Shown: positions 5,216-28,958, counted from the stretch's first letter. The stretch is DNA of 32,000 bases from Enterobacterales bacterium endosymbiont of Anomoneura mori (GCF_047159375.1 NZ_AP031381.1:90001-122000); one strand, 5' to 3'. The notes: generated by a model from the letters alone, not told the origin. Numbers and translations are program-made.

Positions 5216-5659
5216 ATGAAATCTTTAAAATTAATTTTACAATGTGATTTTAATATTAAAAAAAAAAAAAAAAATAAAATTATATTTTTAATTAAAAATA
5301 CAGTTAAAAAATTTAAAAAAAAAACAAAAGTATTAATTAAATTAGTTAATAAAAATGAAATTTTAAAATTTAATTTAATTTTTAGAGGAATTAATAAATA
5401 TACAAATATATTAACTTTTAATTTTAAAGATATAATAAATAATAAAAATTATATAGGTGATTTAATAATTTGTCATGAATTAATTACATTTAAAAAAAAT
5501 AAAAAAAAAATTTTTTTTTTAAATATTATTATTCATGGTTTATTACATTTATTAAATTTAAATCACATTAAAAACAATGAAAAAAAACAAATGGAAATAT
5601 TAGAAATAGAAATCCTTAAAAATCTAGGATTTGATAATCCATATTATATAATAAATTAA
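5216..5659 (+). CDS. ybeY: Endoribonuclease YbeY (16S rRNA 3'-end maturation factor)
   Basis: TNILTFNF, IGDLIICHELI and HGLLHLLNLNH (the H-x3-H-x5-H zinc motif), followed by EILEIEILKNLGFDNPY, align to E. coli YbeY. The start is set at ATG 5216 because the ORF-track start at 5132 lies inside the tRNA-Trp gene. Confidence 0.85.
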   Translation: MKSLKLILQCDFNIKKKKKNKIIFLIKNTVKKFKKKTKVLIKLVNKNEILKFNLIFRGINKYTNILTFNFKDIINNKNYIGDLIICHELITFKKNKKKIFFLNIIIHGLLHLLNLNHIKNNEKKQMEILEIEILKNLGFDNPYYIIN

Positions 5660-8240: not shown

Positions 8241-9614
8241 TTGAAATATTTACCAATATTTATTAATTTAAAAAATCGCACAGTTTTAGTAATTGGTGGA
8301 GGATCTATTGCTTCTCGTAAAATTGATTTATTAATAAAAACTAATGCGAAAATTAAAATTATTGCTAAAAAACTTACACCTGAACTTAAAAAAAAAAATA
8401 ATAAAAAATATATTAATTGGATAGGTCATAAATTTTGTACAAATAAATTAATTAATGTATTTTTAATAATTATTGCTACTAATAATAATAAATTAAATTC
8501 AAAAATATTTTTTGAAGCAAATAAACGTAAAATATTTACTAATACAGTTGATAACCCAAAAAATTGTTCTTTTATTTTTCCATCAATTATTAATAGAACA
8601 CCATTATTAATTGCAATTTCTTCATGTGGTAAAGCACCTATATTAGTAAAATTAATAAGAGAAAAATTTGAATCTTTATTACCATTTAAACTTGGAAAAA
8701 TTATTAAAATTACTTCAAAATGGCGAGAAAAAATTAAAAAAAAAATAAAATCTATTAAAATACGTCGTTATTTTTGGGAAAATATTTTTTCTAAAAAATT
8801 TTTTTCTTTAATTTTAAATTTTCAATATAATAATGCTGAAAATGAAATTATTAAAAATTTTAAAAATTTTAAAATTAAAAATAATGGAGAAATTTCATTA
8901 GTAGGTGCTGGACCTGGAGATGTAGGATTATTAACTATTAAAGGTTTGCAAGTTATTCAACAAGCTGATGTAGTTTTATATGATTATTTAATAAATAAAG
9001 AAATATTAAATTTAATACGTCGTGATGCAAAACGTATATGTGTTGGAAAAAGAATTGGTTTACATTCAGTATTACAAAAAAAAATAAATTATTTATTAAT
9101 ATATTTAGCAAAATCAGGAAAACGTGTTGTTAGATTAAAAGGTGGAGATCCATTTATATTTGGTAGAGGAGCTGAAGAATTAAAATTAGTTTATAAAAAA
9201 AATATTAAATTTAATGTTGTTCCTGGAATAACAGCTGCAAATGGAGTTACAGCTTATGCCGGAATACCATTAACTCATCGAAAATATTCACAAAGTATTA
9301 CTTTTATTACAGGTCATAATTATTTAAATAATAATTTAAATTTTTTAAATTTTAATAATAAAAAACATACATTTGTTATTTATATGGGAACAATTAAAAT
9401 TAATAATATTATAAAAAAAATGATAAATGATGGTTTAAATAAAAATTTACCTATAGCAATTATAAGTAAAGGAACATATTTAAACCAAAATATAATTATT
9501 AGTACTTTAAAAAAAATTAATTATTTAATAAAAAATATAGAATTACCAAATTTAATTATAATTGGTGAAGTTGTTAAATTACATTATAAATTACATTGGT
9601 ATAAAAAAAACTAA
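8241..9614 (+). CDS. cysG: Siroheme synthase (multifunctional CysG)
   Basis: 457 aa (E. coli 457). (TTG)[26 protein letters not shown] matches E. coli [27 protein letters not shown]. Methylase-domain motifs are [28 protein letters not shown] and PGITAA. A TTG start is inferred from the alignment. Confidence 0.9.
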
Positions 9615-9655: not shown

Positions 9656-10558
9656 ATGAATTATAATAGATATACTCATCTTAAACAATTAGAAGCTGAA
9701 AGTATAAATATTATACGTGAAGTAGTAACAGAATTTAAAAATCCAGTTATGTTATATTCTATTGGTAAAGATTCTTCTGTAATGTTACATTTATCAAGAA
9801 AAGCATTTTTCCCAGGTAAAATTCCATTTCCTTTTTTACATGTTGATACTGGTTGGAAATTTAATGAAATGTATAAATTTAGAAAAAATACATCAAAAAA
9901 TTATGATATCAAATTATTAATATATAAAAATAAAGAAAATAATAATGTTAATCCATTTATAGATGGAAGTAACAAATATACTAATATTATGAAAACTATA
10001 GGTCTTAAAAAAGCTATAAATAAATATAAATTTGATGCTGCATTTGGTGGAGCTAGAAGAGATGAAGAAAAATCAAGAGCTAAAGAACGTATATTCTCTT
10101 TTAGAGACCGTTTTCATCGTTGGAATCCTAAAAATCAAAGACCTGAATTATGGAATAATTATAATTGTCAAATAAATAAGGGTGAAAATATTAGAATTTT
10201 TCCTTTATCTAATTGGACTGAATTAGATATATGGGAATATATTTATTTAGAAAATATAGAAATTGTATCTTTATATTTTTCAAAACTTAGAAAAATTGTA
10301 AAACGTGATAATATGTTAATAATGTTAAATGATAATCGTATAAATTTGAAATCTAAAGAAATACCAATGTATTTAATGGTTAGATTTAGAACTTTAGGAT
10401 GTTGGCCATTAACTGGTGCAACAAAATCAAATGCAATTACTTTATCTGATATTATAGAAGAAACACTTTTTATAAATAGTAGTGAACGTTATGGAAGAGC
10501 AATTGATATTGATCAATCTGGATCAATGGAATATAAAAAACGAAATGGTTATTTTTAA
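9656..10558 (+). CDS. cysD: Sulfate adenylyltransferase subunit 2
   Basis: 300 aa, near-colinear with E. coli CysD: [70 protein letters not shown], and a [12 protein letters not shown] end. Confidence 0.95.
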
Positions 10559-10568
10559 TTTTCAAAAA

Positions 10569-11882
10569 ATGATATGTAATAAATATAATATAATAACTAA
10601 AAAAAATATTTTCAAAAAATATTTAAAATTACATAAAAATAAAAGTTTATTGAAATTTTTAACTTGTGGAAGTGTAGATGATGGTAAAAGTACTCTTATA
10701 GGTCGTCTTTTACATGATACTAAACAAATTTGTGAAGATCATTTATTTGAATTAAAAAAAGATATTAAAGGTACACAAGGTTCAAAATTAGATTTATCTT
10801 TATTAGTTGATGGTTTAGAAGCAGAAAGAGAACAAGGTATAACTATTGATATTGCATATAGATATTTTTCAACTGAAAAACGTAAATTTATTATAGCTGA
10901 TACTCCTGGACATGAACAATATACTAGAAATATGGCTACAGCAGCTTCAAATTGTGATTTAGCAATATTATTAATTGATTCAAGAAAAGGTGTTTTAAAA
11001 CAAACACGTAGACATAGTTATATTTGTACATTATTAGGAATACAAAATTTATTAGTAACTATAAATAAAATGGATTTAATAAATTATAATAAATTAATAT
11101 TTAATAAAATTGTTAAAGATTATTTATCTTTTGTAAAATATTTACCTAATAAATTAAATGTTATTTTTATACCAATTTCTGCATTAAATGGTGATAATAT
11201 AATTAAAAAAAGTAATTTTATGAATTGGTATAAAGGTCCAACTATTATAGAAGTTTTAGAAACTGTAGATGTAATAAGTGAATTAGAACTTAAACCATTA
11301 CGTTTTCCTGTTCAATATATTAATAGACCTAATCAAAATTTTCGTGGATATTCAGGAAATATTTCTTCAGGTATTATGAGAGTAGGTCAAAAAATTAAAA
11401 TTTTACCTTATAATATTAAATCAACTATAAAACGTATTGTAACTTTTGATAAAGATTTACCAGATGCAATTGTAGGTGAATCTATTACTTTAGTTTTAGA
11501 AGATAATATTGATATTAGTAAAGGAGATATAATTATTAATGAATTAGATAATATAACATTATCTAATAGAGCATTAATTAAAATTGTTTGGTTAAATGAA
11601 ATTCTATTATCATTAAATGAAATATATAATGTTAAAATATTAGGAAAAAAAATAGAAGCAAAAATTATAACTATTCAATATAAATGTGATGTAAATACAT
11701 TAGTACAATATTCTTCAAATAATATATATTTAAATAATATAGGTTTAATTGAAGTTGTTTTTAATGATTTATTAATATTAGATACTTATTTTAATAATCG
11801 TAATACTGGAAATTTAATTTTTATTAATAAAAATAACAATTCAACAATAGGAGCAGGTTTAATTAAAAAAATTTTTATTTAA
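10569..11882 (+). CDS. cysN: Sulfate adenylyltransferase subunit 1 (GTPase)
   Basis: SLLKFLTCGSVDDGKSTLIGRLLHDT, LVDGLEAEREQGITIDIAYRYFSTEKRKFIIADTPGHEQYTRNMAT and NKMDL match E. coli CysN. The start is set at ATG 10569, 10 nt after the cysD stop. The ORF-track start at 10482 overlaps cysD and aligns to nothing. Confidence 0.93.
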   Translation: MICNKYNIITKKNIFKKYLKLHKNKSLLKFLTCGSVDDGKSTLIGRLLHDTKQICEDHLFELKKDIKGTQGSKLDLSLLVDGLEAEREQGITIDIAYRYFSTEKRKFIIADTPGHEQYTRNMATAASNCDLAILLIDSRKGVLKQTRRHSYICTLLGIQNLLVTINKMDLINYNKLIFNKIVKDYLSFVKYLPNKLNVIFIPISALNGDNIIKKSNFMNWYKGPTIIEVLETVDVISELELKPLRFPVQYINRPNQNFRGYSGNISSGIMRVGQKIKILPYNIKSTIKRIVTFDKDLPDAIVGESITLVLEDNIDISKGDIIINELDNITLSNRALIKIVWLNEILLSLNEIYNVKILGKKIEAKIITIQYKCDVNTLVQYSSNNIYLNNIGLIEVVFNDLLILDTYFNNRNTGNLIFINKNNNSTIGAGLIKKIFI

Positions 11883-21292: not shown

Positions 21293-23242
21293 ATGAAAAA
21301 AAAAAATTTTTTGATAGAAATAGGAACAGAAGATTTACCTTCTAAATTATTAATTAAAATTTCAAAAAATTTTTTTTTAAATTTTATTAAAGAATTAAAA
21401 AAAAATAAAATTGAATATTATAAAATTTATTTATATTCAACATTACGTCGTTTAGCAATTAAAATAAATAATTTAAAAATAAATAAAACTATTTTAAATT
21501 ATAAAAAAAAAAAAATAAAAATTGATAATATATTAAAAAATAATAAAAATAAAAAAAAAATATTTGAAAAAAAAATAATTAAAATAATTAATAATTCATT
21601 AAATAAAATAAACAATTTTAAAAAAATGAGATGGAATAATAATAATTTTTATTTTATACGTCCAATCCGTAATATTATAGTTATGTTAAATAATAATATA
21701 ATTCCAATTTATATTTTTGGAATTAAATCTAAAAGAAAATTGTATGGACATCTTTTTATGAGTAAAAAAAGTATAAATATTAAAAATGTTAATGAATATC
21801 CAAATATTTTATATTTAAAATGTAAAGTAATAGCAGATTATAATATTCGTAAATTTTTAATTATTAAAAAATCTTTATTTAAAATTAAAAAAAAAAAAGA
21901 AAATATTGATTTTGATAAAAATCTTTTAAATGAAGTAACTTCATTAGTTGAATGGCCTGTAATTTTAATTGGACATTTTAAAAAAATTTTTTTAAAATGT
22001 CCAATAGAGTTACTTATTAATATTATGAAAAATTCTCAAAAAATATTTCCAATTTATAATAATAAAAAAAAAATAATTTCTAAATTTATTTTAATAATAA
22101 ATATTAAATCAATTAATAGTAATATAATTATTAAAGATAATGAAAATCTTTTAAATTCACGTTTTAATGAAATTAATAATTTTTTAAAAAATGATTTTAA
22201 AAAACCTTTAGAAAATAATTTAAAAAAATTAAAATATATAATTTTTAAAAAAAAATTAGGTTCATTATATGAAAAAACTTTTAGAAATCAAATTTTATCT
22301 TTTTATTTTTTATTTAAAAATAATATAAATGTAAATTATATTATACGTTCTAGTTTATTTTTTAAATGTGATTTATTAACTAATATAGTTTATGAAAATA
22401 TTAATTTACATAGTATAATAGGAATGTATTATTTACATTATTATAAAGAATCTGAAATAATTTCTATTTCAATAAATAAAAAAAAAATTTTTTTAAATAA
22501 AAAAATTAATAAATTAACATCATTATTAATAATTTCTGATAAAATAGATTTTTTAGTTGGAATTTTTGGAATTAAAAATTTTCCAAAAAAAAAAAATGAT
22601 CCTTTTGAAATTAAACGTTGTGTTTCAAATATATTAAATACAATAATAAAAAATAAAATAAAAATAAATTTTATAAATATTATAAAAAAATCAATTTTAT
22701 TATATGGAAATAAATTAAATAATAATAATGTAATAAATGATGTTATTAATTATATATTTAAAAGATTTTGTTATTTATATATTAAAAAAGGATATTCAGA
22801 AAAAATTATTAAATCTATAAATAAAAATAAATTTTTAAATATTTTAAATTTTATTAAAATTTTAAAATCAATTAAATATTTTTTAAATTTTAAAGAATCT
22901 AAAAATTTAATTTTTTCTAATAAAAGAATATTAAATATTTTAAAAAAAACAAAAGAAATTTTAAATAATAAAATTAATAAAAAACTATTAATAAAAAAAT
23001 ATGAAATAAAATTATATAAAAAAATAAATATTTTAAAAAAAAAAATTAAAAATTTAATAAATAAAAAAAAATATAAAGATATATTTAAAGAATATATAAA
23101 ATTTAATAAAATAATTGATATTTTTTTTAAAAATGTTTTAATTATGGACAAAAATAAATTATTAAGTGTTAATCGTTTAAAATTATTAAATGAAATTAAA
23201 AAAATATTTTTAAAAATTTTAAATATTTCAAAACTAAATTAA
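21293..23242 (+). CDS. glyS: Glycine--tRNA ligase beta subunit (heavily K/N/I-biased)
   Basis: 649 aa, immediately after glyQ. FLIEIGTEDLPSK matches E. coli FLVEIGTEELPPK. TLRRLAI, EVTSLVEWPV and the C-terminal FFKNVLIMDKN..SVNRLKLLNEIKKIF (E. coli FFDNVMVM..RNNRLALL) are recognisable. Confidence 0.85.
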   Translation: MKKKNFLIEIGTEDLPSKLLIKISKNFFLNFIKELKKNKIEYYKIYLYSTLRRLAIKINNLKINKTILNYKKKKIKIDNILKNNKNKKKIFEKKIIKIINNSLNKINNFKKMRWNNNNFYFIRPIRNIIVMLNNNIIPIYIFGIKSKRKLYGHLFMSKKSINIKNVNEYPNILYLKCKVIADYNIRKFLIIKKSLFKIKKKKENIDFDKNLLNEVTSLVEWPVILIGHFKKIFLKCPIELLINIMKNSQKIFPIYNNKKKIISKFILIINIKSINSNIIIKDNENLLNSRFNEINNFLKNDFKKPLENNLKKLKYIIFKKKLGSLYEKTFRNQILSFYFLFKNNINVNYIIRSSLFFKCDLLTNIVYENINLHSIIGMYYLHYYKESEIISISINKKKIFLNKKINKLTSLLIISDKIDFLVGIFGIKNFPKKKNDPFEIKRCVSNILNTIIKNKIKINFINIIKKSILLYGNKLNNNNVINDVINYIFKRFCYLYIKKGYSEKIIKSINKNKFLNILNFIKILKSIKYFLNFKESKNLIFSNKRILNILKKTKEILNNKINKKLLIKKYEIKLYKKINILKKKIKNLINKKKYKDIFKEYIKFNKIIDIFFKNVLIMDKNKLLSVNRLKLLNEIKKIFLKILNISKLN

Positions 23243-27965: not shown

Positions 27966-28589
27966 TTAAATACGACGTCTTTTTGGAGATCTACATCCAT
28001 TATGAGGTATTGGAGTAACATCTACTATACTAATTATATTAAAACCTAAAGAATTTAAAGTACGAATAGTAGAATCACGTCCAGGACCAGGTCCTTTAAC
28101 TTTTATTTTTAAATTATTAATTCCACGTTTTTTCATAAATTTAGAACATTTTTCAATTGCAATCTGTGCTGAAAAAGGTGTAGATTTTTTAGAACCTTTA
28201 AAACCAAATAATCCAGGAGATGAAAATGATAAAGTGTTTCCTTTTAAATCAGTTAATGTAATAATTGTATTATTAAAAGATGCATGTATATTTATAATAC
28301 CATCTAAAATAATATTATTTTCATTTATTTTTTTTTTTTTTTTTTTTTTTAAATTATTTACTTTATTTATATTTTTTTTATTAATATTAAAATTATTTAT
28401 TTTTTTTTTAAAATTATTTACTTTATTTAAATTTTTTTTTTTAATATTAATTTTATTTATGTTTTTTTTAAAATTATTTAATTTATTTAAATTTTTTTTT
28501 TTAATATTAATTTTATCTATATTATTTTTAAATTTATTTACTTCATTTGTATTATTTTTTAAAATGTTATTTTTTTTATTAACATTCAT
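27966..28589 (-). CDS. rpsK: 30S ribosomal protein S11 with a ~80-residue repeat-derived N-terminal extension
   Basis: The C-terminal ~110 aa ([64 protein letters not shown]) is canonical uS11. ATG 28589 is preceded by GGAG with a 6-nt spacer and lies 12 nt after the rpsM stop. The ORF-track TTG at 28601 abuts that stop. There is no other in-frame ATG/GTG/TTG before the core. The true start is not proven. Confidence 0.85.
28328..28350. repeat. Homopolymer T23 (+ strand), equal to A23 in the rpsK mRNA, encoding seven consecutive AAA Lys codons
   Basis: Counted in the sequence: 23 consecutive T at 28328-28350. It lies between the repeat array and the conserved S11 core (residues LKKKKKKKI). 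Confidence 0.9.
28351..28560. repeat. 60-bp tandem repeat, ~3.5 copies, in frame within the 5' part of rpsK
   Basis: Read directly from the sequence. Unit 28381-28440 vs 28441-28500 is 56/60 identical. Unit 28441-28500 vs 28501-28560 is 51/60 identical. The half unit 28351-28380 matches the second half of the unit at 28/30 (the first 10 nt identical). The period is exactly 20 codons. Confidence 0.9.
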
Positions 28590-28601
28590 AATAAACTCCA
28601 A

Positions 28602-28958
28602 CTATTTTTTTATTTTTTTATTTTTTTTTTTACAAGTTTTAGCATTTGTTTTAGTTCTTTGACCATGAATTGGTAAATTACGACGATGTCTTATTCCTCT
28701 ATAACAGTTAATATCTATTAAACGTTTAATATTTAAATTAATTTCTCTACGTAAATCACTTTCAATTATAAATTTAGAAATATATTTACGTATAATATCT
28801 ATTTGTTTTTTATCTAAATTTTTAATTTTAATGTTTTCATTTATATTAGAAGATAAACATATACTTCTTGCTCTAGATTTTCCAATACCAAAAATTGATG
28901 TTAATGCAATTAATAAATTTTTATTTTTTGAAATATTTATTCCTGATATACGTATCAT
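28602..28958 (-). CDS. rpsM: 30S ribosomal protein S13
   Basis: 118 aa. [67 protein letters not shown] are present. AGGAA lies upstream. Confidence 0.95.

Follow-up and report, generated by a model that had tools for sequence, protein, structure and literature searches.

The 32,000-nucleotide stretch analysed here (the window) corresponds to genome positions 90001-122000 of "Secondary_AM", an Enterobacterales co-symbiont of the psyllid Anomoneura mori with a 229.8-kb genome of 17% GC (13-21% across the window). Within it, the rpsK gene for ribosomal protein S11 (uS11) carries, ahead of its conserved core, a 95-codon stretch rich in lysine and asparagine codons that consists largely of tandem 60-bp repeats. 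We conclude that this stretch is probably translated, as an N-terminal tail that begins at the ATG at position 28589. Comparison with five related genomes identifies the site, at the level of sequence, as a hypervariable coding repeat across the clade formed by Secondary_AM and "Ca. Psyllophila". The argument is carried by features that can be read directly from the genomes: the anatomy of the locus, the ancestral position of the start codon, the use of a Shine-Dalgarno (SD)-like motif, and the conservation of the reading frame in six genomes and between strains. The extension is undescribed in the literature searched, which held no account of an S11 extension in symbionts, and the Secondary_AM and Psyllophila genome papers mention neither S11 nor repeats, though the extension is partly visible in database entries.

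The extended rpsK frame and its tandem array

The rpsK reading frame (27966-28589, minus strand) comprises 207 codons and a TAA stop. Its product is identical to GenBank BFI91111.1, 'hypothetical protein SSAmo_1020', the name under which the DFAST/GenBank annotation lists the gene at its full 207 amino acids. The Pfam Ribosomal_S11 profile (PF00411) matched residues 97-206 only (27972-28301, minus strand), over its entire length (positions 1-110 of 110; E 8.5e-42; 142.5 bits against a cut-off of 25.1), and the uS11 core starts at residue 96. Solved bacterial uS11 structures matched at E about 1e-47, the best of them aligning from about residue 87-94 on. Directly upstream lies rpsM (uS13; 28602-28958, minus strand; 118 codons), and the gene order rpsM-rpsK-rpsD-rpoA-rplQ, taken from the list of open reading frames (ORFs) in the window, is the same at the five Psyllophila loci.

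The proposed start codon (ATG 28587-28589, minus strand) follows the rpsM stop after a spacer of 12 nt, ttGGAGtttatt (28590-28601, minus strand), in which an SD-like GGAG (28596-28599) stands 6 nt before the ATG. The sole other canonical in-frame start of the rpsK frame is TTG 28601; between ATG 28589 and the core there is no in-frame ATG, GTG or TTG. Past the GGAG, the sense strand from 28599 to 28242 holds no further GGAG, GAGG or AGGA, and thus none before ATA 28370, the start chosen in other annotations. SD-like motifs (GGAG, AGGA or AAGG) precede 16 of the 33 gene starts in the window, among them those of rplQ, rpoA, rpsD, rpsM, rplO, rpmD and rpsE, and most ribosomal protein genes of the operon have one; as background, 5% of random 19-nt windows contain GGAG, GAGG or AGGA.

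At the free-living Enterobacterales loci listed, the rpsM stop is followed by 15-16 nt containing GGGGT or GAGGT, then by the ATG, with the core 18 codons on. ATG 28589 is the positional equivalent of the rpsK start in these bacteria and in Psyllophila; it therefore represents the ancestral start, with the additional DNA located within the 5' coding region. The distance from ATG to core, 95 codons in Secondary_AM, falls outside the typical bacterial uS11 range (~17-24 residues before the first beta-strand). Among the matches listed, 69 proteobacterial genomes had their first ATG 18-35 codons before the core; these loci came from a species-representative scan, whose listed matches were generic Proteobacteria with no additional Psyllophila or Secondary_AM genome among them, and were used only as a background length distribution.

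As a separate observation, rpsM and rpsK share a reading frame: across 28587-28604 they are parted only by the rpsM stop (TAG 28602-28604), the TTG and three sense codons, and a ribosome reading through the TAG would produce an S13-S11 fusion. The shared frame is probably a coincidence, since in the relatives from Cacopsylla pruni and C. pyri the two genes are not in the same frame.

After the start codon, a leader of 13 codons (codons 2-14; 28548-28586, minus strand) precedes four head-to-tail units of 60 bp, or 20 codons, with a 30-bp sub-period (codons 15-94; 28308-28547, minus strand), as delimited by Tandem Repeats Finder (TRF) and a table of the units. TRF reported a period of 60 with 4.2 copies, 85% matches and 1% indels at 28331-28580; its score of 337 was the highest within the 32-kb window (runner-up 206). 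In codon phase the units occupy 28547-28488, 28487-28428, 28427-28368 and 28367-28308. Units 1 and 2 are identical at 54/60 positions, as are units 2 and 3, units 1 and 3 agree at 51/60, and unit 4 is degenerate (41-44/60 identity to units 1-3). In the best phase, adjacent copies are up to 58/60 identical, and the last duplication was therefore recent. The encoded tail contains 33 Asn, 30 Lys and 13 Ile among its 95 residues, for a net charge of +27, and all 7 G in it (start codon aside) fall at codon position 1.

Unit 4 contains a homopolymer of 23 A on the sense strand (28328-28350, minus strand), which supplies seven AAA lysine codons. No homopolymer in the window is longer (the second longest, of 17 nt, lies at 5258-5274), and the run exceeds the criterion of ~9-10 nt, uninterrupted and in frame, for a slippage-prone poly(A) tract. 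The frame that joins tail and core hinges on the exact length of this run, and both alternative frames terminate a few codons past it.

The stretch between ATG and core is open in one frame only, with 0, 14 and 28 stops over 95 codons in sense frame 0 and the two other sense frames. Shuffling its nucleotides led to an expectation of 13.4 in-frame stops; an open frame arose in 0 of 100,000 shuffles (P <1e-5), and in 2.8e-4 of shuffles once the repeats had been reduced to a single unit.

Much of this anatomy had been proposed in a sequence-only reading of the same DNA, which placed the core about 96 codons after ATG 28589, set the ATG 12 nt after the rpsM stop and 6 nt after a GGAG, saw no other in-frame start or SD-like motif before the core, took the repeat period to be exactly 20 codons and judged the open frame unlikely by chance; our scans bear it out on each of these points. 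Its description of 3.5 copies at 56/60 and 51/60 identity was roughly right, except that the supposed half copy is the first half of the degenerate fourth unit. The 23-A run was absent from it.

Neither the 60-bp unit nor its 30-bp half has dispersed copies elsewhere in the window, and a mobile or dispersed repeat was rejected for this reason. An Rfam scan of the window returned two tRNAs only and nothing at the rpsK locus, so that no known RNA element is supported there; the 16S rRNA gene is not within the window. Two other genes, pta (848-2881) and glyS (21293-23242), contain weaker AT tandem arrays with many indels (periods 44-93, 66-79% matches), at 927-1398, 21474-21627 and 22932-23124. 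None is as clean as that of rpsK; low-complexity growth thus also affects coding DNA outside this gene.

In-frame arrays at the same site in Psyllophila

The closest S11 proteins came from "Ca. Psyllophila symbiotica", the sister group of Secondary_AM (PMC11427311), and are annotated at 151, 155, 151 and 121 amino acids. The comparison took in five "Ca. Psyllophila" genomes, whose hosts are four Cacopsylla species. In all five, a single ATG lies 8-12 nt past the rpsM stop, behind AGGA, AAGG or GGAG, and the stretch from this ATG to the core is free of stops, and in frame 0 only. The core follows 39 codons after the ATG in PSpic2 (PSpicST2) and PSpyr, 43 in PSpicST1 and in the symbiont of C. 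pruni, and 80 in PSmelAO1. The ATG-to-core lengths of the six genomes (285 nt in Secondary_AM, then 117 in PSpicST2, 129 in PSpicST1, 129 in the C. pruni symbiont, 117 in PSpyr and 240 in PSmelAO1) are all multiples of three. The same holds for the dominant TRF periods in Secondary_AM and the four Psyllophila genomes that were run: 60 in Secondary_AM, 12/24 in PSpic2, 9 in the C. pruni symbiont, 18/24 in PSpyr and 12 in PSmelAO1.

For PSmelAO1, shuffling left the frame open with a probability of 2e-5; the three shorter arrays that were tested each gave 2-3e-3. The tails measured, those of Secondary_AM and four Psyllophila genomes, are all basic, with net charges from +13 to +27, and share a sense-strand excess of A over T (skew 0.38-0.43); the Secondary_AM value was reached by none of 6135 windows in other genes. 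The A-runs of the relatives are much shorter, at about 9-12 nt by eye, and their frames are intact. The sequence-only reading had called for a comparison with related symbionts in which stops or frameshifts would be sought, and all five arrays proved to be in frame and stop-free.

The array also varies within a species, as seen for the Psyllophila of C. picta (Secondary_AM is represented by one genome). Across 3.46 kb, the strains PSpicST1 and PSpicST2 differ by 7 single-nucleotide polymorphisms and a single indel. This sole indel is one 12-bp unit (NINK) within the S11 array, and it accounts for proteins of 155 and 151 amino acids. Between species, the arrays of the C. pruni and C. melanoneura symbionts are wholly different, although the two psyllids are described as close relatives. 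Array length thus shifts fast, yet only in-frame, stop-free versions persist, as expected if ribosomes read from the upstream ATG; such persistence is unexpected for an untranslated spacer. Strains of unculturable psyllid symbionts could be typed by means of the S11 array.

In PSmelAO1 (CP102980), the annotated S11 has 121 amino acids and starts at an ATT, with a 220-bp "gap" ahead of it (positions 1281-1500 of locus L004); the same 121-residue annotation is common to five other C. melanoneura strains. The gap is an open frame from the ATG at 1288, which reads MINKNINKK...(KTNL)x7 and gives a protein of 192 amino acids. The S11 gene of PSmelAO1 is thus probably 192 codons long and mis-annotated. 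In two genomes, pipelines that fit the start to the family length have shortened the gene to an ATA or ATT start; in a third record it is labelled "hypothetical". These deposited proteins also bear on the statement in the sequence-only reading that it knew of no described uS11 of this kind. The literature searched held no such description; the architecture itself is not unique, being clade-wide, and S11 proteins of 151-155 amino acids had been deposited.

Start site, reading frame and nature of the tail

Several points weigh against translation of the tail from ATG 28589. RefSeq, through the Prokaryotic Genome Annotation Pipeline (PGAP), and the genome authors both begin S11 at ATA 28370 (28368-28370, minus strand), which gives a protein of 134 amino acids and leaves 231 nt as a spacer (WP_412728858.1 in RefSeq; Table S2 of the authors, with rpsK listed at genome 117966..118370; PMC11427311). 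The shortened PSmel gene, with 121 amino acids from an ATT, is likewise a PGAP call. The main biological objection concerns the 23-A run. In Buchnera, transcription insertions climb exponentially with A-run length, as analysed for runs up to 11 nt only (PMC5574713), and sliding of E. coli ribosomes is seen on successive AAA codons (PMC4363877). Expression through 23 A should therefore be error-prone, and efficient synthesis of an essential protein through seven AAA codons should come as a surprise. A weak point on the side of the data is that the length of the run, and hence the frame, rests on DNA amplified by multiple displacement amplification (MDA), sequenced with 2x300 MiSeq reads, assembled with Newbler at about 100x coverage and completed by in-silico gap filling. 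Selection on the tail sequence is not evident, as the differences between units are almost all non-synonymous, though counts of synonymous and non-synonymous changes are without power in such a composition.

AlphaFold2, with an alignment of 40 sequences, returned a normal S11 core and modelled residues 3-91 as one helix, with a block-mean predicted local distance difference test (pLDDT) score of 80-95 up to residue 80 and of 58 over residues 81-90. The scores for the tail are unreliable because it is of low complexity and has almost no alignment depth. We accordingly treat the predicted long helix as a weak hint and give it little weight, and the model holds no evidence of docking.

The strongest alternative, which we nevertheless consider unlikely, is that S11 begins internally, at ATA 28370 or at ATT 28313/28310 beside the core, and that the array is an untranslated spacer, whose A-rich, unstructured RNA would perhaps aid SD-independent initiation. 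The full form has a calculated mass of 23.5 kDa, compared with 14.8 kDa for a protein begun at ATA 28370 and 12.6 kDa for one begun at ATT 28313. The choice of ATA in two independent annotations speaks for an internal start, and in-frame ATA/ATT codons are available at 28370, 28328, 28313 and 28310. Moreover, SD-like motifs are missing before roughly half of the window's genes, and translation of part or all of the 23-A run would be spared. However, no SD-like motif would serve such a start between 28599 and 28242, and 95 codons would have stayed open where 13 stops are expected. The spacer, of 231-294 nt, would be about tenfold any other in the operon, where the remaining spacers range from -23 to 25 nt. 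An untranslated array also fits poorly with the five Psyllophila arrays, which differ from one another and yet, read from the ATG behind rpsM, all keep the frame without a stop, with periods that are multiples of three, and with the 12-bp size of the C. picta strain indel.

A further consideration comes from the initiation machinery. Initiation factor 3 (IF3) discriminates against non-canonical start codons, and the retention of its gene, infC, in Secondary_AM argues against efficient use of an ATA start. The gene is kept there along with rpsU and rpsA, and it is itself annotated with an ATA start, which counts in favour of an internal start for rpsK (PMC11427311, supplement). Between the two possibilities raised by the sequence-only reading, a polybasic tail and an unrecognised internal start, the former is favoured by the ancestral start position, the use of an SD motif, the relatives, the strain indel and the operon spacers.

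Quite improbable, in our view, is that the A-run is not truly 23 nt long, or is heterogeneous. In that case the upstream frame would encode a short Lys/Asn peptide of its own or represent a decayed 5' end; S11 would come solely from slippage-corrected transcripts, or the gene would be eroding. MDA amplification, MiSeq sequencing and in-silico gap filling lend this idea some weight, as do the length of the run, the longest in the window, the steep rise of slippage with run length and the fact that the alternative frames both stop a few codons after the run. Against it, the deposited 23 A put tail and core in frame, and a run of any length other than 3n+2 would leave an essential gene startless, the core having no other canonical in-frame start. 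In addition, the relatives have intact frames with much shorter A-runs, and the assembly coverage was about 100x. Other genes of this genome also carry long A-runs, such as rpsU with one of ~19-20 nt in frame (PMC11427311, supplement), and the genome as a whole may tend to carry long lysine-encoding A-runs in its translation genes.

That the array itself stems from an artefact of assembly or amplification is very improbable, even though repeats can be mis-sized by MDA and by assembly from short reads. Depending on phase, 2-9 of 60 positions distinguish the copies, and more set unit 4 apart, which does not fit collapsed or duplicated identical reads. At ~240 bp the array does not reach the length of a 300-nt MiSeq read, let alone that of the 800-bp inserts, and arrays occupy the same site in five related genomes that were assembled independently, one of them in a later study. 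With diverged copies well within read length, the copy number is therefore credible. Finally, it is exceedingly improbable that the real gene is the antisense ORF at 28234-28662 (plus strand; 142 amino acids, rich in Phe, Leu and Ile): its 142 open codons are the expected mirror of Lys/Asn codons, given that stop codons rarely arise on a T-rich strand. The ORF found no match in Pfam and runs across the conserved S11 core as well as the 3' end of rpsM.

If the tail is indeed translated, synthesis would start at the ancestral, translationally coupled ATG 28589 and pass through a 95-codon Lys/Asn/Ile tail into a normal uS11 fold. Slippage during replication, or unequal exchange, would have expanded the AT-rich DNA for the N-terminus of uS11, a naturally basic and disordered tail, in a genome under weak selection. 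The outcome would be a 14-codon leader and four 60-bp units, the last decayed into the 23-A run, for a gain of about 78 codons. With initiation anchored upstream of the array, only stop-free, multiple-of-three variants would survive.

Most likely, the tail is a tolerated, nearly neutral by-product of DNA slippage and not a new function. The protein uS11 sits on the 30S platform near the mRNA exit, and more speculatively, the tail may bind rRNA there non-specifically. A stronger proposal, that the clade's uS11 tail is a functional, fast-evolving polybasic helix at the 30S platform, beside the mRNA exit and the anti-SD site, strikes us as doubtful. Were it true, the helix might stabilise an eroding ribosome or capture A/U-rich mRNA leaders, and the clade would offer a bacterial parallel to mitoribosome protein expansion, caught growing through repeat slippage. 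The hydrophobic moment of the tail peaks at 105-110 degrees, a value reached in 2.5 of 1000 shuffles; the 10-residue periodicity of the repeat inflates this signal, and we did not use it to propose an amphipathic helix.

Proteins in tiny genomes usually shrink, and here an essential ribosomal protein would have become 60% longer through repeat slippage. The clade would thus constitute a natural experiment in how much disordered basic appendage a ribosome tolerates, and if the protein is confirmed, a 23-A run in an essential gene would also test the handling of slippage-prone lysine tracts by these bacteria.

Elsewhere in the window, a cysG-like ORF (8241-9614, plus strand), whose first listed start is only a TTG, and a cysD-like ORF (9656-10558, plus strand), overlapped by 68 nt by the next ORF (10491-11882, plus strand), were recognised by eye. 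Both fit the statement of the genome paper that sulfur assimilation genes are kept only in Secondary_AM.

Comparison with known systems

The S11 of Secondary_AM shares with E. coli uS11 its domain, its C-terminal motif, the operon order and a start directly after rpsM. At 207 amino acids compared with 129, it is about 60% longer, and it exceeds the native bacterial uS11 chains in the PDB, which range from 114 to 139 amino acids. The nearest counterparts are the Psyllophila proteins, which likewise have a basic Lys/Asn/Ile repeat tail at the same site, in frame and behind the same ATG with its SD motif. They differ in their unrelated periods (9, 12, 18 and 24 bp instead of 60), in the length of their tails (39-80 compared with 95 codons) and in having no 23-A run.

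A long N-terminal extension is also found in the mitoribosomal protein uS11m (PDB 7pkq chain k, 233 amino acids), in which the core occupies residues 120-233 and follows a long lineage-specific segment. Both proteins belong to highly reduced, endosymbiont-derived translation systems. The mitochondrial extension, however, does not consist of tandem repeats, is nuclear-encoded and has been resolved as a structural part of a remodelled ribosome. The resemblance drawn by the sequence-only reading is thus best taken as an analogy only.

Growth of coding repeats in AT-rich DNA has other precedents. In Plasmodium falciparum, AT-biased DNA and slippage give rise to in-frame Asn/Lys-rich repeats in conserved essential proteins; those insertions are eukaryotic and genome-wide, whereas in the present window S11 is the only clean case. 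Composition by itself is an insufficient cause. Carsonella_AM, from the same insect, has 16.2% GC, and its rpsK encodes 119 amino acids and overlaps rpsM (PMC11427311); AT bias alone therefore does not produce the extension.

The poly(A) tracts of Buchnera and Blochmannia are, like the run in rpsK, A-runs in coding regions of AT-rich obligate symbionts. The Buchnera runs analysed reach at most 11 nt, whereas that of Secondary_AM has 23 nt, is in frame as deposited and needs no slippage rescue. Lastly, variable-number tandem repeats and contingency repeats in bacterial coding sequences are generally known to vary in unit number while the frame is kept, as in the S11 arrays. Contingency repeats reside in surface or phase-variable genes; the present array lies in an essential ribosomal gene of a clonal, vertically inherited symbiont, and no on/off switching is implied.

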